DNA from: Alphaproteobacteria bacterium
Lineage (GTDB): Bacteria > Pseudomonadota > Alphaproteobacteria > Rs-D84
Direction of reading: 5' to 3'
Length of the DNA: 64,000 nucleotides
Assembly: GCA_017503725.1 (NCBI GenBank)
Contig: JAFVSL010000005.1
Span: forward strand, 15,455-79,454
In this document: piece after piece, positions 3,149 through 57,373 of the stretch
Layout of the letters: every line of letters begins with the position of its first letter
Position numbering within the stretch: the stretch's first letter is position 1
The notes under the pieces: generated by a model
What the model was told of the DNA's origin: nothing
Database searches by the model: none
The model's input: only the letters and a program-made list of their open reading frames with translations
Program-made: the position numbers and the translations under genes

Positions 3149-3628
3149 TTAGTTGTTCATTGCACACGGTTCGGTAAATTCATATGTGCCGGGTGCGTCT
3201 GTAAATGATACGCCCGCCGGCGCGTACATTATGCAATCCCCCGCGGGATTTGATACCAAACACGATTCTGCCACCCCCACAGATACCATTCCAGACGGGC
3301 ACGTCGTCGCAATTGTGATTTGCGGTTCATCAATCGCAATATACCCCGATGGGCAATCTGTGGCGGGGCCATTATCCAAAACACACACACCGGCATCGCA
3401 TTTTAACCCACTGGCACAGGGTGGCACACCGGTGTAAACCGTCAGTGTGCTACTGGTACAGGTCTGGCCCAGTGTTGCCGCCGCCACACAGGTTGCCATT
3501 GATAGACCACTCGTTCGCAAACATACCCCAGAATCACATTGCGTACTGTATAAACAACTTTGACCATTTGCGAGCCCTGCAATCGCGGGTAACGGCATCA
3601 GTATAAACAAAAACATAATTCGTTTCAT
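3149..3628 (-). CDS. Family-A secreted Cys-rich protein, copy A1. Conserved C-terminal block CPSGYIAIDEPQITIATTCPSG...AESCLVS.PAG.CIMYAPAGVSFTD.PGTYEFTEPCAM.
   Basis: Signal peptide MKRIMFLFILMPLPAIAG. RBS AAGGTG. Paralogous to the ORFs at 24884..25156 and 34633..35118. Confidence 0.65.
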   Translation of the reverse strand: MKRIMFLFILMPLPAIAGLANGQSCLYSTQCDSGVCLRTSGLSMATCVAAATLGQTCTSSTLTVYTGVPPCASGLKCDAGVCVLDNGPATDCPSGYIAIDEPQITIATTCPSGMVSVGVAESCLVSNPAGDCIMYAPAGVSFTDAPGTYEFTEPCAMNN

Positions 3629-4045: not shown

Positions 4046-4205
4046 TTGTTCAATCTCCTTTCTTTGTTTTATTCGCGAAAAAACAAAAACCACCGAATAA
4101 ATTCAAGTGGTCAGGAGGTTAACGACAATCTAATAGAATTGTGCTGTTTATTCAATATATTCACAGCCCCCCTGACTTTTATATTCAGGAGTTGTCTTAT
4201 TCGAT
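4046..4205 (-). promoter_or_regulatory. Conserved ~150-nt 5' leader of the B/A cassette, copy L1. Mutually exclusive pairings CTCCTGA / GTCAGGRGG / CCTCCTGAC, a downstream hairpin plus T-run, then the RBS.
   Basis: Highly similar sequence sits upstream of B2 (24262-24411), B3 (35567-35722) and B4 (16486-16625), always in the same orientation relative to the gene. Confidence 0.6.
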
Positions 4206-4503
4206 ATTAAATCGAAAACTATTAGCACGGGTCGTTACACCCCATTATGGTAAAAACACCATAACAACTACATTATAACGGATTGTTTCCATTTGCGCAA
4301 TTGCAATGATAAATAAAAATTTAGTGGTGAGCCGTAAGTGGCTAGTGGATAGTGTTTGTGTGCGGCAAATGCCGCACATTATAGTGCCATCACTAACCAC
4401 TAATCACTAAGATAAACTTTTATTTATCTTAGCGTTTTCATATCACATATCTCTTGTCTCATATCTCATAAAAAATCCCGCCGGATGGCGGGATTTTTTA
4501 TCT

Positions 4504-8845: not shown

Positions 8846-8927
8846 AAAATCCTTTGTGCTAAATAAAAGTTTAGTTAAGTATCTTATATCACATATCTCA
8901 TTAAAAATCCCGGCATCGCCGGGATTT

Positions 8928-10079
8928 TTATTTGTTTCTAATACCATCCGCGATTAGTGTCGCGGGGGCGCCATTTGATCGACGCCACAGCGTATCCGCA
9001 GATTTTAATTCGGCAATCATCTTTTCACGAACCGATGGAATTGTTAATTGTCCAAACGCGTCCAATGCACTGTCCGCACGGGCGGCCGGCCCTAATAATT
9101 CTGGATATACACCGCGATTTAATAAAATATTCACCAAAGATACCCATTTTACCCGTATCATTTGGCGAACCAGCCACGTGGTTATCGGGTTCATTTTATA
9201 CAAAACAATTGTCGGCACGTGCATCATTGCCAGTTCGGCAGATACCGTACCACTGGCCACAATGGCAATATATGTTTTTGAATAAACATCGTACCGCTGA
9301 TTGGACGGGACCAATGTTGGTTTAACTGGCCACCGCGACGTCTGGTCACGAACATAGTCCACCGTTGTTTCAACGGTTGGAATAACAAACTTGTATCCCA
9401 AAAATCCATTCCGCGTCAGCATATCCACCATATCACGCATTATCGGCAATAAACGTTTGACCTCTGACATACGACTGCCCGGAACCAGGGTGATAATTTT
9501 TTCATCTGATTTGTTCTTTGTTGCATCATATTTGCCGATTATCCCATCTGCAATTGGATGCCCAACCGCAACCGTATCCAAACCATATTTTGTAAAATAG
9601 GGCACCTCAAAATCAAAAAACGCATACAGTTTATCAAATGTTCGCGCATATTTTTTTGCGCGTCCCGGCCGCCAGGCCCAAACCTGGGGGGCAACAACGT
9701 GATGAAATTTAAGACCGTTTTTAATAAGTTCTTGGCCCGCCGGCAACTTGCGAATTTGTTTTATAACACTTTTGACAAAGCCAGGTGCATCAATACTGAC
9801 CACCACATCAGGTTTTATTTCCAATATTGCATTTACCGTCTCGCGGATACGGCGTGTTAGTGTGCGGGCGTGTGCTAAAACCTCTACCGCGCCCATAACC
9901 GCCAAATCACCCATCGGGAACAACGATTTTAATCCCGCAGCACACATATTTTCACCGCCGATGCCAACGAACCGCACGTCTGGCATTTGTTCCATAATAC
10001 GCGCCCCCAGCACATCCCCAGACACTTCGCCCGCGATGATAAAGACGGTTTGCTTATTCTGCATTCTTTGATGTTCCAA
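8928..10079 (-). CDS. lpxB: Lipid-A-disaccharide synthase
   Basis: N-terminus ...TVFIIAGEVSGDVLGARIMEQM is typical of LpxB. Length is about 380 aa. Lies immediately downstream of lpxA. Confidence 0.9.
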   Translation of the reverse strand: MEHQRMQNKQTVFIIAGEVSGDVLGARIMEQMPDVRFVGIGGENMCAAGLKSLFPMGDLAVMGAVEVLAHARTLTRRIRETVNAILEIKPDVVVSIDAPGFVKSVIKQIRKLPAGQELIKNGLKFHHVVAPQVWAWRPGRAKKYARTFDKLYAFFDFEVPYFTKYGLDTVAVGHPIADGIIGKYDATKNKSDEKIITLVPGSRMSEVKRLLPIMRDMVDMLTRNGFLGYKFVIPTVETTVDYVRDQTSRWPVKPTLVPSNQRYDVYSKTYIAIVASGTVSAELAMMHVPTIVLYKMNPITTWLVRQMIRVKWVSLVNILLNRGVYPELLGPAARADSALDAFGQLTIPSVREKMIAELKSADTLWRRSNGAPATLIADGIRNK

Positions 10080-14729: not shown

Positions 14730-15185
14730 GTGGAAAAACCAGTCAAACTATCACTAGAACAAGTGTACAATGCTTGCCATCGCTTTATTTGGCACATGGA
14801 CAGCAAGGTAAAAATTGTCCACACCCCAACAGAACGCAGATATATAATCTCGAACTATGATGTCTGGGAGGGCAGTCGTGGGATTTTATACATCTGCATT
14901 CCGCACTATGTGGCCAAAAGCCCCCAGAATCAAACCGGACACATTTTATTCTGTTACAATGGAGCTACGCCAAGATGGATTGCTGCAACACATCACAATA
15001 TTGCACATGCGATGGATGAATCTGCATCAAAACTAACTAAATTGTTGGGCCGTTACCGCGAACCAGTGTTTTTTGATTTAGTGGACAGTGCCGACAAACG
15101 CCCCCTGTATGATCGAGGCCACCCAGGCCTTGGTCGCGGAAGCCAATACCATTTTGTTCGTGATCTTTATCAAAAACAAAAATAA
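14730..15185 (+). CDS. Hypothetical protein with a GTG start
   Basis: ORF of 151 aa followed by a hairpin terminator at 15186-15215. No recognisable motifs. Confidence 0.45.
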   Translation: MEKPVKLSLEQVYNACHRFIWHMDSKVKIVHTPTERRYIISNYDVWEGSRGILYICIPHYVAKSPQNQTGHILFCYNGATPRWIAATHHNIAHAMDESASKLTKLLGRYREPVFFDLVDSADKRPLYDRGHPGLGRGSQYHFVRDLYQKQK

Positions 15186-15214
15186 AAAAATCCCGCATTA
15201 TGCGGGATTTTTTT

Positions 15215-15967
15215 TCATTCGTTACACGGCGCGCTGTACAGATATGTACCAACGTCATCAGAATATACATTCCCCGCGCGCGAATAAAGCCAACACGTCC
15301 CCAGGCCAGCATCACTTAGATGCGTTACTTCTTCGCACGCTGGCGCCGTCCCCAAACTCGCCTTACACGTTCCGTATGACGACGCGTCATAGTCCCTAAA
15401 AATCAAGCCCTGGCGTTCAATTGCAAGCCCACCAAGTCCAGACGGCGCCTCGTCTGGGAACATCTGGTCTTCTATGTCACTGCCACGATATGTCATCCAT
15501 TTGTTCATTTCTGTAAAAAGATACATACCAAGAGTTTGCTTCTCTAATATGCTAGCTTTGCACGCATATGCGCAATTATACATACATGAATCCAAATCAG
15601 CGCTTGTATCCGCCCCCGTTTTTTCTGGAAACCACTGTGTCGCATATGGGCGTATCATTTTACACCAACAATAATTACCCGTTTGTGTGGGCGCCGCAAG
15701 ATGTTTCGCAAATGTACTCATACTTGTGAATCTCGTCGACGAACACGCTGAAATTATTCTGGCATCTGTAAGATATGTATTTACAGAACCAGCAACCGTG
15801 AAACTATGATGCGACGGCCAAATCGATGCTCCAACTGTATAAGTGTCATTTGCCGTCCAACCAAATGCCGTATTCCCAAGAAAATCGGACCCAATTGACA
15901 CTTGGGTAATCGATGCCGCAAATGCGGGTTCTAATACCAACATATATAATATAAATATTTTCTTCAT
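15215..15967 (-). CDS. Family-B secreted Cys-rich protein, long variant, copy B5 (NYCWCKMIRP...W motif)
   Basis: Signal peptide MKKIFILYMLVLEPAFAAS. Contains the YCWCKM motif. Lies immediately downstream of B4 in a tandem arrangement. Confidence 0.6.
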   Translation of the reverse strand: MKKIFILYMLVLEPAFAASITQVSIGSDFLGNTAFGWTANDTYTVGASIWPSHHSFTVAGSVNTYLTDARIISACSSTRFTSMSTFAKHLAAPTQTGNYCWCKMIRPYATQWFPEKTGADTSADLDSCMYNCAYACKASILEKQTLGMYLFTEMNKWMTYRGSDIEDQMFPDEAPSGLGGLAIERQGLIFRDYDASSYGTCKASLGTAPACEEVTHLSDAGLGTCWLYSRAGNVYSDDVGTYLYSAPCNE

Positions 15968-16461: not shown

Positions 16462-16485
16462 TTTCCTTTCTCCTGTTGTTATCAA

Positions 16486-16625
16486 TCCAACGCACCCGCG
16501 TCAGATAATCAAAAACCACCATTCATCAGGTGGTCAGGAGGTTGGAAACAATCATCGGAATTGTGTCGCTTATTCAATATATTCGCAACCCTCCTGACGA
16601 CAAATATCAGGAGTTTAAATTTACC
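16486..16625 (-). promoter_or_regulatory. Conserved B-cassette leader, copy L4
   Basis: Contains AACTCCTGA...GTCAGGAGGGTTGCGAATATATTGAATAAGC...AACCTCCTGACC in the mRNA sense. Confidence 0.55.
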
Positions 16626-16807
16626 GTCCGCAAGACAGATATCCATTGCGAACGCCGATGCACGGGTTTCCACACCCCATTATGACAAAAACCGCCATAA
16701 CAAGTATATTATAGCGAATTCTTTCAACTTAGGCAAATACTAAGATAAGTAAAAATTATGTCCCGAAAAATAAAAAATTTTGTAAATAATCCACCCGGCG
16801 GGATTTT

Positions 16808-19472: not shown

Positions 19473-19722
19473 AATAATTACCTTTTCCTGTATTTGATTT
19501 TAATGAATTTGTTATTGAAATGAAAGCCCAAAAATACGCGGGCAGGGTGTAAAAAATCCTTAGGCGGCGATGCGCCAACAAAAAGCACTTGAAAAGATAA
19601 ATTTATTCGAACTCATACCAATCATTATAGTGCACAATTATAAAATTTGCAAGTTTTACAAAGATAACTATTTATAGTATCCACCACTAGCCACTAAAAA
19701 ATCCCGCCAATGGCGGGATTTT

Positions 19723-22119
19723 TTATTTTTTCACAACAAAGTTTACCAATTTTTTCGGGACAACAATTGTCTTGATAATCGTTGCGCCATCTAACTTGGC
19801 ACCCAATGCACTTTTTGCCATTTCAACCAATGCATCGTCGGCCACGTCCGCCGGCGCAACAAATTCTGCACCACGTTTACCGTTAACGGACGCAACAATT
19901 GTCATTTCGGTCTCAACCAGTTTCGCCGCATCAAATGTTGGCCAATCTGACAACGCCAGCATTTCATCGTGTCCCAATTTTTCCCACATTTCTTCGGTCA
20001 AATGTGGTGCAAATGGATTTAACACCCGAACCAGCGTTTCGTACGCCGCCCGCGGCATACCACCCGAAAATGCATTGATATATTCCATCATCGCAGAAAT
20101 CGCCGTGTTAAATTTCATATTTTCAACGCGCTCTGTCACATCCGCAATCAATTTATGCATCAAACGTTCTTGGGTCGCGGTCATTTCATCGCCCGTCAAA
20201 TTATCAGACATATTTTCTACACGTTTCAAGAAACGCTGAACCCCGGCCAGTGCACCATCGGTCCATACCGCGTTATTTTCCCACGGCCCCAGTGACAACA
20301 CCGAAACACGCCCCGCATCAGCCCCAACAGAATCAACCAAATCCGCCACCATAAAACCATTCCCACGCGACTTGGACATTTTATACCCATCATTACCCAT
20401 CAACAGTCCCTGGGCCGTACGCTTTGCGTATGGTTCCGGTGTATTAACCAATCCCAAATCATACAATGCGTGATGCCAGAAACGCGAATAAATCAAATGA
20501 CGTGTGTTATGCTCGTGTCCACCGTTATAGTGTGTAACCGGCATCCAATTTTCCATCTGCTGGCGCGAACAAAATTCTTTATCATTCTTTGGATCCAGAT
20601 ACCGTAAATAATACCACGATGACCCCGCCCATCCCGGCATAGTATCCGTTTCACGTTTTGCAGGCGCCCCACAATGTGGACACGTTGTATTTACCCAATC
20701 GGTTGCACGGGCCAGGGGCCCTTCGCCATCATCGGTTGGTTTATAGTCCACCATATATGGTTGCATAATCGGCAATTCAGATTCATCAACCGGTACCCAG
20801 CCACATTTTTCACAATAAACCATTGGGATTGGTTCGCCCCAATACATCTGGCGTGAAAAACCCCAGTCTTTTAATTTATATTTTGTTGTGCCACGTGCAA
20901 AGCCGTGTTCCGTACCATATTTAATTGCGGTGGCAATGGCTTCTTCTTTGCCCATACCGTCCAAGAAGGATGAATTTATATGCGCACCGTCGCCTTCCCA
21001 AACTTTATCAGGTTCACCACCGGCCAAAACCGGGATAATTTCCAAACCGAATTTCTTGGCAAAGTCCCAGTCACGACCATCGTGCGCCGGCACCGCCATA
21101 ATTGTCCCATACGCATAATCAACCAATACATAGTCCGATGTGAACACAGGGATTTCTTTGCCGGTATATGGATTCAATGCCATTATACCCTCTAAACGCA
21201 CACCCGTCTTTTCCTTGGTCGCGTCTGTCCGTTCAATCTCAGATTTTGCGGCAGATTCCTTGATATACGCACGTACCGCATCCGCGTTTTTAATTTTACC
21301 TTCGTCCAGCCATTTTGCCAACAACTTGTGTTCCGGGGCAATTACACAGAACGTCACACCAAATATAGTATCTACACGCGTCGTATAAACCGTCATAACA
21401 TCATCCCCAACACGGAAATCAACATCCGCGCCGTGCGATTTACCAATCAGGTTTACCTCATCTTTTTTAATACGTTCATCAAAATCAACATCTTTTAAGC
21501 CGTCTAATAATTTATCGGCATATTTAGACAACGCCAAATTCCACTGAACCTTCATTTTCTTTTCGACCGGCCCGTGACAGCGTTCACAACAACCATCTTC
21601 TAACTCTTCATTTGTCAGGTTTGTTTTGCACGCCGGGCACCAATTCATCGGCAGGGCAGATTTATACGCCAACCCCGCCTTGTAAAACTGAATAAACATC
21701 CATTGTGTCCATTTAACATATTCCGGGTCAGACGTTGCAACACGTGTTTCCGGACTGACCGACCAACCAACACGATCAATCATTTTTGAATATGCTTCTA
21801 TCAATTCCTTTGCAACGTCTGCCGGATGGCGTCCAATCTTGGTGGCATAGTGTTCACCGGCAATCCCCATTGCATCAAAACCCATTGGGAACAAAACATC
21901 ATATCCACGTGCACGACGAAACCGGGCCAAAACATCGATTCCCGAATAATTCATCATATGTCCCGCGTGCATCCCGGCACCGGACAAGAACGGAAATTCC
22001 ACCAACGTGTAAAAACGTGGTTTCGAACCATCATCTTTCGGTACAAACGCGCGTGCATCGCGCCAGCGTTTTTGCCATTTTGCCTCACGTTCGTGAATTT
22101 TTTTCATATCATCTGCCAT
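19723..22119 (-). CDS. leuS: Leucyl-tRNA synthetase
   Basis: Class I HMGH, the zinc-knuckle region NWCPACKTNLTNEE...CERCHGPV and KMSKS motifs. 798 aa. Confidence 0.9.
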   Translation of the reverse strand: MADDMKKIHEREAKWQKRWRDARAFVPKDDGSKPRFYTLVEFPFLSGAGMHAGHMMNYSGIDVLARFRRARGYDVLFPMGFDAMGIAGEHYATKIGRHPADVAKELIEAYSKMIDRVGWSVSPETRVATSDPEYVKWTQWMFIQFYKAGLAYKSALPMNWCPACKTNLTNEELEDGCCERCHGPVEKKMKVQWNLALSKYADKLLDGLKDVDFDERIKKDEVNLIGKSHGADVDFRVGDDVMTVYTTRVDTIFGVTFCVIAPEHKLLAKWLDEGKIKNADAVRAYIKESAAKSEIERTDATKEKTGVRLEGIMALNPYTGKEIPVFTSDYVLVDYAYGTIMAVPAHDGRDWDFAKKFGLEIIPVLAGGEPDKVWEGDGAHINSSFLDGMGKEEAIATAIKYGTEHGFARGTTKYKLKDWGFSRQMYWGEPIPMVYCEKCGWVPVDESELPIMQPYMVDYKPTDDGEGPLARATDWVNTTCPHCGAPAKRETDTMPGWAGSSWYYLRYLDPKNDKEFCSRQQMENWMPVTHYNGGHEHNTRHLIYSRFWHHALYDLGLVNTPEPYAKRTAQGLLMGNDGYKMSKSRGNGFMVADLVDSVGADAGRVSVLSLGPWENNAVWTDGALAGVQRFLKRVENMSDNLTGDEMTATQERLMHKLIADVTERVENMKFNTAISAMMEYINAFSGGMPRAAYETLVRVLNPFAPHLTEEMWEKLGHDEMLALSDWPTFDAAKLVETEMTIVASVNGKRGAEFVAPADVADDALVEMAKSALGAKLDGATIIKTIVVPKKLVNFVVKK

Positions 22120-22269
22120 AATTTCGTCCTATGTGTTATTAAAATTACCTTAACCCCCAGTTTATATTTCGCGCGCACATTATTCAAGTTTTTTTATACA
22201 GACACATAAAAAAATCTAGACTTTTTTTATTTTTCAATAAATACTTGTTACGGGGTGCATATATGCCCC

Positions 22270-22440
22270 GGACATAGTGATGTGGCTTTGGCTTAGAACA
22301 CCAAAACATTGAACGAAATGGCTACCACTTTATGTCCCGACCAAGCGGTCGGGATGTCGTTGCTCGCAAGACAACGAGGTCATCAATGTTTGACTGTTCT
22401 AACTCCCGACCACCACTTGCTATGGTGGTTTTTTTATTAC
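22270..22440 (+). promoter_or_regulatory. Structured leader upstream of the PAP2 phosphatase gene. Several hairpins ending in a strong intrinsic terminator (ACCACCA-CTTGCTA-TGGTGGT plus T7). Alternative pairing of GGTCGGGAT with two TCCCGACC copies.
   Basis: Read directly. GTCCCGACC-aagc-GGTCGGGAT is a perfect hairpin. A second TCCCGACC overlaps the 5' arm of the terminator. The terminator ends about 20 nt before the RBS. Confidence 0.5.
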
Positions 22441-22459
22441 AATCGAAAGGAAAGAAAAT

Positions 22460-23014
22460 ATGTCAAGACTTAGAACTCTTGTCGCGTTTTCTGTTTGCGG
22501 GGCATTGACCGCAAATGGTGCAATTGCGGGTGGACCTTTTTCATTTTCCAACCCGAATAAACTAAGCGATACATTTATGGTGATGACGGTGGCATACGCC
22601 CTGGGGCTAAGCAGTACCGAAGATAACTTTGACGGTGCCATTGAATTAGCCACCAGTATTGCCGGTGCCCAGATAGTTGCCGAAGGTATCAAGGCCCTTG
22701 AACTGGAACGCCGCCCGAATGGTTCCGATTGGAAATCATTCCCCAGTGGTCATTCCGCCGCCGCATTCAGCAGCGCAATGTTCGTCCACCGTCGTTACGG
22801 ATGGAAACCGGCAATTATACCATACGCAATGGCCGCGGTAACTGGTTGGGGCCGGGTACGTGCCGACGCGCACTATTGGCACGACGTCCTGGGCGGGGCG
22901 GCAGTATCTGCACTTTTTACCTGGATTGTTGTGGATAAATATGACGTGGCACAAAATATTACAGTTGCTGCCACCCCCGATAACATCCACGTCGGGTTCA
23001 AGACAGAATTTTAA
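22460..23014 (+). CDS. PAP2 superfamily phosphatase, secreted or membrane-associated
   Basis: Signature motifs KxxxxxxRP (ELERRPNG), PSGH (FPSGHS) and SRxxxxxHxxxD (RVRADAHYWHDV). Signal peptide present. Confidence 0.8.
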   Translation: MSRLRTLVAFSVCGALTANGAIAGGPFSFSNPNKLSDTFMVMTVAYALGLSSTEDNFDGAIELATSIAGAQIVAEGIKALELERRPNGSDWKSFPSGHSAAAFSSAMFVHRRYGWKPAIIPYAMAAVTGWGRVRADAHYWHDVLGGAAVSALFTWIVVDKYDVAQNITVAATPDNIHVGFKTEF

Positions 23015-24058: not shown

Positions 24059-24261
24059 GGGGCCCACCACCAAAATCCACACCGCCCATCCAGGCGGTGT
24101 TATTATTTATTTTTATTATTGTATTTTTTCTCTATACATTTTATAATCACGGTGTCAGCGGGATTTTCCACTGATGGGGTGTCAGAACCCGTACATAACG
24201 CGTTTGGAATCGAAATCCAGCGCGCCATTGGCGTGTTTTTTTCGTATCTGTCCAAACGATA

Positions 24262-24411
24262 AATAAAACTCCTGAACACATAGGTGTCAGGAGGGTTGCG
24301 AATATATTGAATAAGCACACAATTCGTTATGATTGTTCTGAACCTCCTGACCACTCGTTTATGCGCGGTGGTTTTTGTTTTTTCGCGAAAAACAATGAAA
24401 GGAGATTGAAT
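24262..24411 (+). promoter_or_regulatory. Conserved B-cassette leader, copy L2
   Basis: aaaactcctgaacacataggtgtcaggagggttgcgaatatattgaataagcacacaattcgttatgattgttctgaacctcctgaccactcgtttatgcgcggtggtttttgttttttcgcgaaaaacaatgaaaggag, then ATG. Confidence 0.6.
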
Positions 24412-24873
24412 ATGAAAAAACTTTTAATCTTAACCGCGCTTGGTGCGATTTTGACCGCGCCCGCAATGGCGGTACAAAAATGCGTACAGTTGCCCACAAA
24501 AGGCTCAGGTTGTTCTTTTAGCAGCAGCTCTTTCAGCATTGAAATACCCATAAGCTGCAGTGCTGCTGGGATATCTATGAAGGCTATAGCGTTGTGTGCT
24601 TCTGCTTATGCTGACAAAGGAGGCGTCGTATCAGCAGGCTTAGTCGCAAACACAATAGATGGGGAAACTATGTCTTATGGTCCCTACTATTGTTGGTGCA
24701 AACTTGTTCAGCCAGTTGAATCAAAGTGGGTATTGGCTTCTAGTACAAGCAACGACGAATTCAGTTCCTGTTCTTATTCCTGCTCCCAAAAATGCGCCGA
24801 AGCGATGCGGGCCCCTAAAGATGTTGAACTTGATATCTGGCCAATAATGCTGGAAAATTTATTAGTTGATTAA
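24412..24873 (+). CDS. Family-B secreted Cys-rich protein, copy B2 (PYYCWCKLVQP.ESKW)
   Basis: Start at ATG 24412 (MKKLLILTALGAILTAPAMA) with RBS AAAGGAG. Confidence 0.65.
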   Translation: MKKLLILTALGAILTAPAMAVQKCVQLPTKGSGCSFSSSSFSIEIPISCSAAGISMKAIALCASAYADKGGVVSAGLVANTIDGETMSYGPYYCWCKLVQPVESKWVLASSTSNDEFSSCSYSCSQKCAEAMRAPKDVELDIWPIMLENLLVD

Positions 24874-24883
24874 GGTGGCGGAT

Positions 24884-25156
24884 ATGAAACGAATTATATT
24901 TTTATTGTTGTGTATGCCAGGGTTGGCGCACGCCGCCGCCCCCAGTACCACTTGTCCATCTGGATACATCGCCATAAACGAACCTGCCATTACAATTGCA
25001 ACCACGTGCCCCAGTGGCACAATTTCGGTTGGCACGGCGGAATCGTGTTTGGTGGAAAGTCCCGCGGGGGATTGTATAATGTACGCGCCGGCGGGTGTCA
25101 GTTACACCGACAGTCCCGGCACATATGAATTTACCGAACCGTGCGCAATGCAGTAA
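24884..25156 (+). CDS. Family-A secreted Cys-rich protein, copy A2, short form of 90 aa
   Basis: MKRIIFLLLCMPGLAHA signal peptide, then the conserved block CPSGYIAINEPAITIATTCPSG. RBS AAGGTGGCGG. Terminator at 25157-25185. Confidence 0.65.
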   Translation: MKRIIFLLLCMPGLAHAAAPSTTCPSGYIAINEPAITIATTCPSGTISVGTAESCLVESPAGDCIMYAPAGVSYTDSPGTYEFTEPCAMQ

Positions 25157-25185: not shown

Positions 25186-25953
25186 AGGCAGGAACAGGGC
25201 CTATCCCCCCCCTGGATACAGTATTCTTGTCACATATCTCATTTCTCACAAAAATCCCCCAACCCGGGGGATTTTTTGCAATTTTTACCGCCCCGCCGAC
25301 CGTTTTTCGCCCGCAAACCCGCAGAAATCCGCCATTTTTCGCATTTTTAGCACCAGAATAGGGGGCAAAACCCCAATTTTCGGCCATTTTTGACATTTTC
25401 ACCATACAAATCCACCCGTTATCCAAACATCAAAAAAAAACATAAATCGGATACAAAAAAGTACTTAAAAAAGTATTTTAATAAAAAACACTTAAATTTA
25501 TTTATAAATCTATAAACAAAATGATATTTTTATTATTTAATAAATAATTTTAATTTTTTCCGCAACAAAACACGCATCGCACCACAGACAAAAAAACAGA
25601 TCGATTTTCATCGCGCCGGGCACAGAATTATACGTCACAAAATTATCATCGCCACCAGAATCAAACAACATCACACCAGGGCCACACAAACACACCAATC
25701 GCGCCACAGGGCGCAGAATTCCGCCAATCACACAATTATACGTTCATCGCGCCGAGAATCGATTAAGGCATATACCACCAACACACACCAAGCGGAATAA
25801 CACCCGCCATAATCGCAATCATCGGCCCCAGGACAGACATAAATCGGCATAATTATCGGATATTATGCATACACACGCACATTTCCGCTATTCTTCTATA
25901 CCAAACTATACATAATATAAATTATGCGCCTTTTATATATCACTGTCAACCTA
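25186..25953. other. About 770 bp of non-coding AT-rich DNA with direct-repeat motifs (ATCGCGCC x3, ACA[GC]AATTATACGT x2, CCATTTTT x several), an AT-rich tract of about 130 bp at 25430-25560, and one near-DnaA-box TTATCCAAA
   Basis: No ORF with RBS spans the region. Repeats read directly from the sequence. Confidence 0.4.
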
Positions 25954-34632: not shown

Positions 34633-35118
34633 TTATGACATTGGACACGCACCTGTAAATTCATACGTGCCTAGTGTGTCTGTAAATGATACGCCCGCCG
34701 GCGCATACATTATACACGACCCCGCGGGACTGGATACCAAACACGATTCCGCCGTACCAATGGCGGTTGTGCCACTGGGGCAATTGGTCGCGATGGTGAT
34801 TTGTTCTTCATTTATTGCAATGTAACCTGATGGACAGGTATCTATTGCATTACAAAGACCGTTTTGACATATCAAACCACTGGCACAAGGTTTTTCCGTA
34901 TCAAGATAATAACCTATATCTCCTACTTTTGTTCTACAGGATTCTCCAAGGACGGCGGGCGCTGCACAATACCTCAATAATTCGCCACTTTTTTGTGAAC
35001 ATACCAGCGATGCGCAATCTCTGTTCGCTATGCACTGTTCACCATTGGCCAGTTCGCCTTGTGCAGCCGCATACGCGACAATCGGTACAAGCATCAATAA
35101 AAATATCAATCGTTTCAT
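34633..35118 (-). CDS. Family-A secreted Cys-rich protein, copy A3
   Basis: Start at ATG 35118 (MKRLIFLLMLVPIVAYA) with RBS AAGGGG. Carries the conserved block CPSGYIAINEEQITIATNCPSG. Confidence 0.65.
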   Translation of the reverse strand: MKRLIFLLMLVPIVAYAAAQGELANGEQCIANRDCASLVCSQKSGELLRYCAAPAVLGESCRTKVGDIGYYLDTEKPCASGLICQNGLCNAIDTCPSGYIAINEEQITIATNCPSGTTAIGTAESCLVSSPAGSCIMYAPAGVSFTDTLGTYEFTGACPMS

Positions 35119-35566: not shown

Positions 35567-35722
35567 CTGTTTACTCCCTTTCTTTTGTTTTATTCGCGAA
35601 AAAAAACAAAAACCACGCGCATAAACGAGTGGTCAGGAGGTTAGTAACAATTATAAGGAATTGTGTGCTTATTCAACATATTCGCAACCCTCCTGACACC
35701 TATATGTTCAGGAGTTTTTATT
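35567..35722 (-). promoter_or_regulatory. Conserved B-cassette leader, copy L3
   Basis: Near-identical to L2 in the mRNA sense, including the U-run hairpin (cactcgtttatgcgcgtggtttttgtttttttt). Confidence 0.6.
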
Positions 35723-35959
35723 TGTCATTTGGATTTCATACGAAAAAACACGCCATATGGCGCGCCCGGTTCAGGATCTTTCGTTGTTTTATCCAGACGC
35801 CTTATATCGGGTTACTACACCCCATTACAACCATCGGTTATAACAAACAAATTATAACCAAATATTTCATCAAACGCAACGACGAAGATAAATAATTATG
35901 TATTCCTCCACTAACCACTTACACTAATCACTAAAAAATCCCGCCGAATGGCGGGATTT

Positions 35960-36619
35960 TTATCCACGGAACCCCAGTGCAACAATAAACATTTCCACAC
36001 TGTCCTTGCGTGACGATGGTGGCTTGATATGATGCACAGATTCAAATTTTTCTTTGATTTGTTTTAATAAATCATTTGTTGTTCCGCCGGTAAAGGACTT
36101 ACACACAAACGTACCACCCGGCTTTAATGCACGTAACGCAAAATCAAACGCATATTCCAATAAAACCATCTGACGAATATGATCTGTCTTTTTATGTCCA
36201 ACCGTATTCGGCGCCATATCAGATACAATCACATCCGCGGTTCCATTACCAATCTGGTCTGGTTGCAAGCCCAACTTTTCTTCCAGCCAGCGCAATGCCG
36301 CATCAGATGTAAAATCGCCCTGATATGTTTCCACACCGACAATTGGCGATATTTCCAGCAAATCCATCGCAAAAACTTTCGATTTCGGATACGTCCGCGC
36401 AATATATTGCGACCACGAACCCGGTGCCGCACCCAAATCAACAACAACCTGACCATTGCGCAAGAATTTAAACTTCTCGTTCATCTCAATCAGTTTATAT
36501 GCCGCACGTGCGCGATAGCCATCCTTTTGTGCGCGTGCGACATACGGATCCGCCGCCTGGCGTTGCAGCCACGCGACCGACGATTTCTTTGCCGCAATTT
36601 TCTTATTTGTTATTTTCAT
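35960..36619 (-). CDS. rlmE: 23S rRNA (uridine2552-2'-O)-methyltransferase
   Basis: FtsJ motifs (VVDLGAAPGSWSQY, DVIVSDMAPN). About 219 aa. Confidence 0.85.
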   Translation of the reverse strand: MKITNKKIAAKKSSVAWLQRQAADPYVARAQKDGYRARAAYKLIEMNEKFKFLRNGQVVVDLGAAPGSWSQYIARTYPKSKVFAMDLLEISPIVGVETYQGDFTSDAALRWLEEKLGLQPDQIGNGTADVIVSDMAPNTVGHKKTDHIRQMVLLEYAFDFALRALKPGGTFVCKSFTGGTTNDLLKQIKEKFESVHHIKPPSSRKDSVEMFIVALGFRG

Positions 36620-44300: not shown

Positions 44301-44326
44301 CGTCCATCCGGACGGTTGAATTTCTG

Positions 44327-44375
44327 GCACGCCCTACAGGATTCGAACCTGTGACCTGCAGATTAGAAATCGTCT
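44327..44375 (-). pseudogene. tRNA-Arg(TCT)-like 3' half: anticodon loop to CCA with no 5' half. Candidate att remnant.
   Basis: Reverse complement CGATTTCTAATCTGCAGGTCACAGGTTCGAATCCTGTAGGGCGTGCCA has an intact T-arm, acceptor and CCA. The upstream sequence is not tRNA-like. Confidence 0.55.
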
Positions 44376-57230: not shown

Positions 57231-57296
57231 ATTGGTGAATACTGGGTCAACAAATAAAAAGAAAATCGGGGTAAACCCGATTTAATTTTTGGCGTG

Positions 57297-57373
57297 CCCA
57301 GCAGGATTCGAACCTGCAACCTATTGCTTAGAAGGCAATTGCTCTATCCGGTTGAGCCATGGGCACAAAACCA
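57297..57373 (-). tRNA. tRNA-Arg (anticodon TCT), CCA encoded. Its 3' end faces the integrase.
   Basis: Reverse complement GTGCCCATGGCTCAACCGGATAGAGCAATTGCCTTCTAAGCAATAGGTTGCAGGTTCGAATCCTGCTGGGCACGCCA folds as a perfect cloverleaf. Confidence 0.85.

Follow-up and report, generated by a model that had tools for sequence, protein, structure and literature searches.

A candidate family of two-state leader RNAs in front of exported-protein genes of Candidatus Enterousia

Introduction

In the PyrR-dependent pyr leaders of Bacillus (RF00515), a first hairpin formed by segments 1 and 2 prevents segment 2 from pairing with segment 3, and the 2:3 helix competes with a terminator before the ribosome-binding site (RBS). 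Multi-copy riboswitches for cyclic di-GMP (c-di-GMP) occur upstream of surface and secreted protein genes, and known riboswitch classes include both ON and OFF members. Terminated riboswitch transcripts can act in trans in other bacteria. The ompA-type 5' untranslated regions (UTRs) of outer-membrane protein mRNAs have a 5'-terminal hairpin and act as mRNA stabilizers. Here we analyze a leader that recurs five times in a 64,000-nucleotide (64-kb) stretch of alphaproteobacterial DNA (contig JAFVSL010000005.1, positions 15,455 to 79,454, forward strand; "the window" below). Covariation supports two mutually exclusive sets of helices in this leader, in front of a terminator-like hairpin. Many more copies are found in related genomes, before genes for outer-membrane, protease, adhesin-like and cysteine-rich secreted proteins. 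The family probably consists of cis-acting two-state RNAs that control transcription read-through into exported-protein genes of Candidatus (Ca.) Enterousia (Rs-D84, Alphaproteobacteria), a reading to which we attach moderate confidence.

Ca. Enterousia, of the uncultured order Rs-D84, comprises gut bacteria whose genomes are mostly below 1 Mb and encode few recognizable regulators or transporters (PMC12306168). The leader bears on how such reduced-genome gut bacteria control their interaction surface. If it is a switch, it would be their main regulatory device for exported proteins and would offer an experimental handle on the signal that is sensed. For RNA biology it would be a compact natural bistable RNA with both conformations visible in sequence covariation, with an unusual 5'-to-3' clamp helix and a scaffold that may be wired both ON and OFF. 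Rfam 15 does not include it, so annotation pipelines overlook it.

Results

Copies of the leader in the window

A sequence-only reading of the window had described positions 24262-24411 as a conserved leader of about 150 nucleotides (nt), with two direct repeats (segments 1 and 3) each complementary to a segment 2, and a hairpin with a U-run before the RBS. All of these features are present there. A repeat finder and a four-way alignment gave four full copies in the window:

4046-4310, minus strand: copy c4, a short form without the hairpin T1 (see below); covariance-model match 4085-4245, 118 bits; precedes the operon 4045-3638 and 3628-3149
16462-16740, minus strand: copy c16; model match 16511-16680, 95 bits; precedes the operon 16461-15988 and 15967-15215
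24119-24411, plus strand: copy c24; precedes the two-gene operon 24412-24873 and 24884-25156
35567-35880, minus strand: copy c35, a long form with T1; box at 35825-35808; 78.7 bits; precedes the operon 35566-35129 and 35118-34633

The 14-mer AACCTCCTGACCAC has four exact occurrences in the window, against 0.17 occurrences expected at up to two mismatches. With a covariance model built from 18 seeds with the mid-domain excised, these four copies score 79-118 bits, and a weak fifth match lies at 22288-22433. One copy had been overlooked in the earlier reading, a divergent fifth copy at 22251-22433 (plus strand).

Architecture of the leader

The stretch described earlier is the 3' two-thirds of the element. 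Its true start lies about 90-130 nt further upstream, where a TATAAT box, a hairpin (P0) and the box AUGGGGUGU-NNNN-ACCCG are common to all copies. From a sigma-70-like promoter to the terminator-like hairpin T2, about 30 nt before the RBS, the full leader RNA is 200-260 nt long. In c24 its parts are as follows, all on the plus strand:

24119-24147, plus: predicted sigma-70-type promoter; -35 TTGTAT at 24119-24124, 17-nt spacer, -10 TATAAT at 24142-24147
24155-24174, plus: P0, the 5'-terminal hairpin; the A of the AUGGGG box is the last base of its 3' arm
24174-24200, plus: 5' strand of the long-range helix P1; box AUGGGGUGU (P1a, 24176-24182), P1b CAGAAC 24183-24188, loop CCGUA 24189-24193, P1c CAUAACG 24194-24200
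24177-24180 with 24187-24190, plus: box hairpin, an alternative local pairing of GGGU with ACCC; GAGGU...ACCUC variants in other copies
24201-24259, plus: variable mid-domain arm, closed by CGUUUGGA:UCCAAACG and containing T1
24219-24237, plus: T1, a terminator-like hairpin with a U-run at 24238-24243, flagged by the terminator scan
24269-24275, plus: segment 1, CTCCTGA
24286-24294, plus: segment 2, GTCAGGAGG
24269-24294, plus: P2, the segment 1:2 hairpin, CUCCUGA 24269-24275 with UCAGGAG 24287-24293 and a variable extension and loop between; proposed anti-antiterminator
24297-24317, plus: P3, a short UGC:GCA stem that encloses the invariant 15-nt motif GAAUAUAUUGAAUAA (24300-24314)
24318-24340, plus: 3' strand of P1; J CACAAUU 24318-24324, P1c CGUUAUG 24325-24331, AUU 24332-24334, P1b GUUCUG 24335-24340
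24319-24323 with 24332-24336, plus: J-hairpin, an alternative pairing of ACAAU with AUUGU whose loop is the 3' strand of P1c
24343-24351, plus: segment 3, CCTCCTGAC (more broadly AACCUCCUGAC, 24341-24351); AACCUCC pairs with the box (P1a, fold A), and CCUCCUGAC pairs with segment 2 at 24286-24294 (fold B, proposed antiterminator)
24351-24371, plus: T2, CCACTCG...CGCGGTGG (RNA CCACUCG...CGCGGUGG), an intrinsic-terminator-like hairpin
24372-24383, plus: U-tract of T2, TTTTTGTTTTTT
24384-24414, plus: spacer with an A-rich tract complementary to the U-tract, Shine-Dalgarno sequence (SD) AAGGAG 24399-24404, start codon ATG 24412-24414

TANAAT is present in 96 of 127 upstream regions, as TATAAT in 74. 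It ends 25-26 nt before the box in 64 copies, and a TTG stands 17 nt upstream of the hexamer in 64 copies. A simple consensus scanner did not call the c24 promoter, whose -35 element is weak. The earlier reading had allowed that transcription might start downstream of the element, making it a promoter or operator. The conserved promoter (TTG-N20-TATAAT) lies 25-26 nt 5' of the first conserved RNA base, which predicts that the whole element is transcribed. Directly behind the promoter, P0 occurs in 77 distinct sequences, every one of them a 7-8-base-pair (bp) hairpin (median -7.4 kcal/mol, against -2.6 for shuffled sequences).

A T1-type hairpin with its U-run is found in the mid-domain of 55 of 79 leaders, and 11 have a short hairpin instead. 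In the window, the GC-rich hairpin and U-run of T1 are also seen at 35745-35775 (minus strand) and are missing in short copies such as 4085-4245.

The variable extension of P2 covaries, reading CAC:GUG, CC:GG, CCC:GGG or UAC:GUG. All three stem pairs of P3 covary as well. The motif it encloses is split by an inserted GC hairpin in three divergent copies (GAAUAAU[hp]AAAAUAA, where hp is the insert). No pairing partner beyond chance was found for the invariant motif elsewhere in the window.

At the 3' end, the U-tract of T2 (24372-24404 region and equivalents) is complementary to the A-rich tract before the SD, for example UUUUUGUUUU with AAAAACAA. A helix of at least 6 bp between the two is possible in 44 of 79 leaders and is also part of the fold of c24. 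In read-through transcripts it would give a hairpin ending beside the SD.

A long-range helix closes the ground-state fold

The earlier reading had proposed the 1:2 and 2:3 helices, which are supported below, and had missed the dominant helix of the leader. In single-sequence folds, the variable positions of the 5' box proved complementary to those immediately preceding segment 3. RNAalifold arrives at the same architecture, which we call fold A. Here P1, made of P1a (GGGGU:AACCUCC), P1b and P1c, closes a junction of the mid-domain arm, P2 and P3. Fold A is the minimum free energy (MFE) structure in 96% of 76 leaders.

P1 covaries strongly in its two variable parts. Among 79 unique full leaders, the 6-bp P1b exists in about 17-19 versions, complementary in all except three extraction errors. 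In an alignment-free test, its strands pair with a median of 6 of 6 Watson-Crick pairs within a leader (cis), against a median of 3 between leaders (trans), and none of the trans pairings reach 6. P1c (6-8 bp) differs in almost every copy: there are 67 distinct strands, the cis median is 6, and 1% of trans pairings reach 6. Compensated pairs include CAUAACG:CGUUAUG and CUGUAUG:CAUACAG.

A formal count agrees with these tests. In an alignment of 127 sequences, 92.8% of cells are paired; the figure is 78.2% for shuffles and 37-48% with slid partners. This alignment was fitted to fold A and is biased towards it, a bias from which the cis/trans tests are free. Double-sided changes are seen at 29 of the 33 modeled pairs. 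The covariation score is 0.362, compared with 0.129 for shuffled and about 0.05 for slid partners, and none of 500 shuffles reach the observed value. The sequence-only reading had named the lack of covarying base pairs as grounds for giving up the RNA interpretation; they are abundant in both kinds of test. Across the alignment there are 122 G.U pairs and 37 A.C pairs, an excess expected for RNA read from this strand. This excess, together with compensatory changes that are specific to each copy, disfavors the other option raised earlier, that the segments are operator repeats at the DNA level.

Alignment quality limits what can be counted in this way. MAFFT on full leaders misplaces the variable-register helices and shifts the register of the type II segments described below; since that register is shifted, the J-hairpin and P3 are the only elements formally counted on the MAFFT alignment. 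The model alignment misaligns segments 1 and 2 in long or divergent copies; for this reason an alignment-free test was used for the 2:3 helix.

Within each of 10 genomes (37 copies), the combination of P1b and P1c is unique to its copy, with no duplicates. Orthologous loci of different genomes have combinations in common. The unique combinations fit plain compensatory drift, and they also fit selection for an intramolecular P1 among many co-expressed leaders that are identical in other respects.

Segments 1, 2 and 3 support a second fold

In most copies (type I) segments 1, 2 and 3 read CUCCUGA, UCAGGAG and CCUCCUGAC. They are nearly invariant among these copies and so uninformative on their own; the information comes from divergent copies. 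Type II, found at several loci, has CUCCAAC, GUUGGAG and CCUCCAAC, with GCUCCAAC or ACUCCAAC as sub-variants of segment 3. The fifth window copy has UCCCGAC, GUCGGGA and CUCCCGAC, and one further copy has CUCCUGG in segments 1 and 3 alike. The three segments thus change in concert, consistent with 1:2 and 2:3 being alternative helices, as the sequence-only reading had supposed. P1a requires AACCUCC only. The remainder of segment 3 is idle in fold A; even so, it changes along with segment 1 and is complementary to segment 2.

Without an alignment, the 10 nt before and into T2 fall into 9 versions, each with an 8-10-bp Watson-Crick complement upstream in its own leader. Complementarity of segment 3 averages 9.4 bp in cis, compared with 4.9 bp between types. 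Types I and II are found together in single genomes, which argues for RNA-RNA pairing and against one sequence-specific protein that reads segments 1 and 3. Two upstream helices would exclude the 2:3 antiterminator, P2 (segment 1:2) and P1a (box with segment 3), and both are present.

Two local hairpins exclude P1 in turn. The 3' arm of the J-hairpin overlaps P1b; this hairpin is 96% paired, with a switch from A-U to U-A. In divergent copies ACAAU:AUUGU becomes (G/A)CUAU:AUAG(U/G), GUCA:UGAC or GAUA:UAUC, and the fifth copy and locus L078 have wholly different complementary sequences. The second is the box hairpin, GGGGU...ACCCG with GAGGU...ACCUC variants. We rejected ACAAUU...AUUGU as a plain third hairpin in a junction closed by 2:3, as its "loop" is the 3' strand of the covarying P1c; it survives as an alternative belonging to fold B, the fold with the 2:3 helix. 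Each invariant paired segment of the leader has two alternative partners, and each freely varying one has a single partner. This pattern of conservation fits an RNA with two folds.

The terminator-like hairpin T2 and its overlap with the 2:3 helix

T2 occurs in 124 of 124 copies, and its stem interior takes many different sequences. Its median length is 20 nt, and 8 U (minimum 6) stand in the 9-nt tail. For the copy near 4046-4205 the earlier reading had noted different bases in this hairpin that still pair, and the sequence of that copy bears this out; overall, three of the four modeled basal pairs covary. The hairpin is weak, with a median free energy (dG) of -6.9 to -7.4 kcal/mol, most of it in the conserved base CCAC:GUGG.

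The 2:3 helix is 8-13 bp long, most often 10. It takes 1 basal nt of T2 in 29 copies, 2 in 50, 3 in 32 and 4-5 in 5. Removal of 1, 2 or 3 basal nt changes the median dG of T2 to -5.4, -2.3 and -1.0 kcal/mol, and with the capture possible in each copy the median goes from -7.4 to -3.2 kcal/mol.

A fifth, divergent copy

The overlooked copy belongs to a third type:

22251-22433, plus strand: fifth copy (type III), with segments GUCCCGACC / GGUCGGGAU / CUCCCGACC; precedes a PAP2-family gene at 22460-23014 (Pfam PAP2)

It scored 18.8 bits (E value 0.005) in the covariance-model search of the window, and its fold has an MFE of -72.6 kcal/mol (z -5.7). P0, P1b, P1c, P2, the J-hairpin, segment 3 and T2 are all retained, all with different sequences. 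In this copy the long-range helix runs through segment 3 into T2: CAUAGUGA-U-GUGG (22273-22285) forms 12 bp with the T2 5' arm and loop, CCAC-UUGCUAUG. With T2 covered in this way, closure of P1 would itself block termination and turn expression ON.

One diverged metagenomic ortholog, L142, retains the helices through compensatory changes. It has CAUAGUUA:UAACUAUG, so that two wobble pairs have become Watson-Crick pairs, one of them by changes on both sides, and its T2 stem is CCGCC:GGCGG compared with CCACC:GGUGG in the fifth copy. A syntenic ortholog (L001) is almost identical to the fifth copy and is uninformative. Type III therefore suggests OFF and ON wiring on one scaffold, as seen in a single lineage.

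L142 was the sole relevant match in the metagenome scan for type III, which returned mostly an unrelated high-GC repeat (...TTCTCCCGACCCAAGGGTCGGGAGTCCACACTAGTTTTACATTGG...CTCCCGACCC...) on dozens of contigs from a few metagenomes (L120-L175: Ga0105053-55, Ga0209390, Ga0209491 and Ga0335398). That repeat surfaced through the type III search pattern and has no connection to the leader.

Distribution and downstream genes

To see how widely the leader occurs, a genome collection was scanned with an RNA-derived pattern, which gave at least 111 stretches. The matches listed are from "Candidatus Enterousia", Alphaproteobacteria or Rickettsiales animal-gut metagenome-assembled genomes, except for two (an "uncultured Muribaculaceae bacterium" and an "uncultured proteobacterium"). 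In the retrieved loci the covariance model found 121-127 matches, about 17 of them divergent. More than 120 copies were found in Ca. Enterousia (order Rs-D84) gut genomes.

The leader precedes many unrelated open reading frames (ORFs), not one gene family. Where enough downstream sequence was available, nearly every copy was followed by an SD and an ORF on the same strand. The distance from segment 3 to the start codon is 43-142 nt, and the codon stands a median of 30 nt beyond the end of the model. A strict hydrophobic-core test for signal peptides was passed by 73 of 103 distinct downstream N-termini and by 12 of 36 background ORFs; since this test misses Thr/Gly-rich signal peptides, the true fraction was judged by eye, which left about five N-termini without a signal peptide. 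By Pfam, the downstream products include an outer-membrane protein beta-barrel/Opa-type porin, a trypsin-like protease, and PKD and Flg_new surface repeats, and most have no family.

In the window, the four main copies each precede a two-gene operon for small cysteine-rich proteins with signal peptides. These proteins have only 36 database relatives, all from uncultured gut Alphaproteobacteria, and mostly match no Pfam family. The exception is the product of 3149-3628, whose N-terminal part weakly matches the Colipase N-terminal domain (E value 1e-6, 28.8 bits against a cutoff of 27). The second genes of the operons, 3149-3628 (minus strand), 24884-25156, 34633-35118 and 15215-15967, code for a common cysteine-rich C-terminal domain (CPSGYIAI.E..ITIATTCPSG...CIMYAPAGVS.TD..GTYE).

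One degenerate copy, L049:1837-1966 (plus strand), keeps segments 1-3, P3 and T2. The partners of the P1 5' strand are missing and there is no obvious gene behind it; the copy may be in decay.

Searches for known families

At gathering thresholds, a search of the whole window against Rfam 15 gave six tRNAs only and no match to the leader, in line with the earlier impression that the architecture belongs to no named class. Permissive scans of 24100-24450 and 22180-22470 gave nothing above 22.7 bits (sRNA-Xcc1, 22.7 against a threshold of 53; PyrR, 19.4 against 54). The best permissive match, the PyrR binding site (RF00515) on 24266-24382, had an E value of 2.2; it was rejected on this score and since the genes are not for pyrimidine biosynthesis or transport. 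The signature sequences of the leader were not found in the literature searched.

Other repeats in the window

A cluster of TAGTG(G/A)-type repeats (ttagtgattagtggttagtg...) lies between the upstream terminator and the leader promoter at 4320-4420 (minus strand), 35900-35935 (minus strand) and L002:140-260, with a hairpin GTGTGCGGCAAATGCCGCACA within 4340-4380 and in L002. The cluster could be a further conserved upstream module, such as an UP element or a binding site. Near-identical terminators (AAAAATCCCGCC...GGCGGGATTTTTT), flanked by runs of A on one side and of T on the other, form the direct-repeat family D2:

4460-4501, 8891-8932, 15174-15215, 19685-19726, 25238-25279 and 35922-35963: D2 terminator family, from the repeat finder

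Positions 103-350 hold a tandem repeat with a 12-nt period (GGTGGCGGATCTGGC...), found as 14 overlapping 92-nt copies by the repeat finder. By reading, it appears to encode a long Gly-Gly-Ser-type linker inside the ORF 124-849. The 56-nt stretches 44313-44368 and 57278-57333 are 77% identical and have the motif GGATTCGAACCTG in common; the latter overlaps a tRNA-Arg at 57290-57366 (minus strand). Neither ARAGORN nor Rfam called a tRNA at 44313-44368, which might represent a piece of a tRNA or the scar of an old integration.

The window is cellular DNA, encoding LeuRS, UvrA, transketolase, ArgRS, HisRS and six tRNAs. A phage origin, which its many tRNAs and terminators might suggest, was rejected given these cellular genes and the lack of any phage match by megablast.

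Discussion

A two-state RNA as the preferred reading

We consider it probable, with some reserve, that the leaders act in cis as two-state RNAs on transcription read-through. Transcription would start at the conserved promoter, and the RNA would then have two mutually exclusive helix sets to choose from. Fold A is the predicted thermodynamic ground state. In it, P1 would link the 5' box and two variable segments to the region through AACCUCC of segment 3, closing a four-way junction of the variable arm, P2, and P3 with its invariant AU-rich motif. Segment 3 would then be clamped by P1 and segment 2 held by segment 1, so that the weak T2 could form and transcription would stop before the RBS. 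In fold B, the box hairpin and the J-hairpin would keep the P1 strands apart and delay P1. Segment 3 would invade P2, pair with segment 2 over 8-13 bp and capture the basal 1-5 nt of T2, allowing read-through. The invasion probably begins at the two G's of segment 2 that P2 leaves free, a toehold step that we infer. The putative logic is thus that of an anti-antiterminator (1:2 with P1), an antiterminator (2:3) and a terminator (T2). In the fifth copy the long-range helix spans T2, and closure of P1 would turn expression ON.

Regulated termination and its direction are predictions from this logic. Any input that shifts the balance might be a ligand, protein or RNA, or else temperature or the speed of the polymerase. 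Among the conserved features, only the invariant P3 motif has no pairing explanation, which makes it the best candidate for a contact site.

Several points weigh against this reading. Fold B is less stable than fold A by a median of 9.6 kcal/mol, and folding of successive prefixes prefers fold A at almost every stage, c35 alone flipping to the 2:3 helix; fold B thus needs kinetic trapping or an effector. The antiterminator overlaps T2 only slightly, by 1 nt in the three scorable type I copies of the window, and branch migration could restore T2. No other cis partner was found for T2 of the main type: in tests of the P0 region against T2 and of upstream segments against the T2 interior, cis equaled trans, so a hidden antiterminator in the main-type copies, formed by either with T2, was rejected. 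T1, in 55 of 79 leaders, is a second terminator-like hairpin inside the RNA that the switch model does not explain. Support for fold B comes from few independent events, roughly 3-4 lineages, and type II may stem from one change. The formal covariation count has the bias towards fold A noted above, and the start site, termination and read-through are all predicted.

If the two-state reading holds, one RNA switch probably controls much of the exported protein output. A more far-reaching version is tentative, and we would not rely on it: one new class of sensing RNA would govern much of the secretome of a gut symbiont with a reduced genome, with dozens of exported-protein operons per genome of less than 1 Mb answering one signal, OFF- and ON-type copies on one scaffold, and P1b and P1c selected as a "barcode" so that P1 stays within one molecule. 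The signal in that case might be something such as a second messenger, a host- or partner-derived molecule, or the state of the envelope or of secretion.

Alternative explanations

A refinement of the two-state reading, possible though unlikely in our view, is that a metabolite or second messenger binds the four-way junction of fold A and the P3 motif, stabilizes P1 and thereby switches termination. The leader has the complex junction closed by P1 that a riboswitch would have, with the 3' strand of P1 joining an alternative helix beside the terminator. It also has many copies per genome before surface and secreted proteins, seemingly both ON- and OFF-type arrangements, and one invariant unpaired motif that is left unexplained. 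However, that leftover element, an AU-rich hairpin or internal loop, looks less like a ligand pocket than like a site of protein or tertiary contact, and the regulated genes hint at no metabolite. Even with no ligand, fold A is favored by about 10 kcal/mol, and no Rfam riboswitch matches. The data support the label "attenuator-type RNA switch"; that of "riboswitch", with its direct ligand binding, is putative.

It is more doubtful still that the leader is a constitutive structured 5' UTR, a non-switching cassette of strong promoter, 5' hairpin and compact fold that stabilizes or processes envelope mRNAs, T1 and T2 being leaky terminators or structural hairpins. Such a cassette leaves unexplained why, through three types, the part of segment 3 that lies outside P1a follows segment 1 and remains complementary to segment 2, and why two hairpins exclusive with P1, the J-hairpin and the box hairpin, persist; a universal hairpin with 8 U before the RBS would also waste transcription. 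It does agree with fold A being the ground state at nearly all transcript lengths, with the likeness of P0 to known mRNA stabilizers such as the ompA 5' UTR, with the long double-stranded P1, which could be an RNase III substrate, and with a regulon of envelope and secreted proteins, often highly expressed.

We think it very improbable that the copies are primarily genes for trans-acting small RNAs of about 200-260 nt ending at T2, with downstream expression as incidental read-through. Although they have their own promoter and terminator, occur in many nearly identical copies, and could act in trans as terminated riboswitch transcripts do elsewhere, nearly every copy with enough downstream sequence is followed by an SD and same-strand ORF, with no space for another promoter. 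No orphan with an intact structure was seen among the copies, the sole exception being the degenerate fragment L049:1837-1966.

Attenuation by a leader peptide is rejected as barely credible. A ribosome on a short ORF starting at the box AUG would cover the 5' strand of P1 and decide between the folds; by blocking P1 it would favor fold B, and the box does start with ATG in 76 of 79 type I leaders, the remaining three having TTG or GTG there. However, an SD-like motif precedes this AUG in 8 of 79 leaders only, the ORF varies from 7 to 102 codons with no conserved peptide, and the A of the AUG closes P0. ACG or CAG stands at the box position in divergent copies, and the apparent "codon" variation is explained by the covariation of P1b.

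Least probable of all is a DNA-level element, whether operator repeats for a regulator or a miniature inverted-repeat transposable element or Correia-like repeat with terminal inverted repeats: for all its multiple intergenic copies with direct and inverted repeats, the inverted repeats change, almost without exception, from one copy to the next and are complementary within a single copy only (19 sequences of P1b, 67 of P1c), the opposite of transposase or operator recognition, G.U is tolerated far above A.C, orthologous loci of different genomes keep identical variable sequences, and, in copies with enough flank, the element keeps a fixed geometry between its promoter and a same-strand start codon instead of a variable insertion site and orientation.

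Comparison with known systems

The two-state leader can be set beside four described systems. With the pyr leaders it has in common that a first 1:2 hairpin would prevent a 2:3 helix competing with a terminator before the RBS, and it is because of this common three-helix layout that PyrR was the best, though insignificant, Rfam match. Unlike the pyr leaders, it has an extra long-range helix of about 20 bp from the 5' end that clamps segment 3, its antiterminator overlaps the terminator by 1-5 nt only, and its regulon consists of exported proteins with no pyrimidine genes.

Like c-di-GMP and other terminator-platform riboswitches, the leader has several helices meeting at a junction that P1 closes, and an alternative helix uses the 3' strand of P1 as well. 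Similar to the c-di-GMP class, it has many copies per genome before envelope and secreted proteins, and, as among terminator-platform riboswitches, ON and OFF arrangements seem to exist within the family. It differs in that no Rfam riboswitch model matches it, its gene context suggests no ligand, and its conserved nt are mostly explained by alternative pairing, not by a binding pocket.

T-box leaders are also large, multi-copy and lineage-restricted, end in a choice between terminator and antiterminator, and hold a short copy-specific segment within a conserved scaffold. In the present leader the copy-specific segments (P1b and P1c) pair in cis and not with tRNA, the genes that follow are not aminoacyl-tRNA or amino-acid genes, and no Rfam T-box matches. 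The ompA-type 5' UTRs are similar in being long, with a 5'-terminal hairpin, before envelope protein genes; here there are in addition covariation-supported alternative folds, an internal terminator-like hairpin and dozens of unrelated genes.

The leader is a member of no described family. As in an attenuator, a terminator-like hairpin (T2) stands between promoter and start codon, and helices upstream (P2 and P1a) are exclusive with the antiterminator, with three segments that covary; as in a riboswitch, the 5' UTR has a conserved structured domain supported by covariation. In its proposed working it most resembles a three-helix attenuator or the expression platform of a riboswitch.

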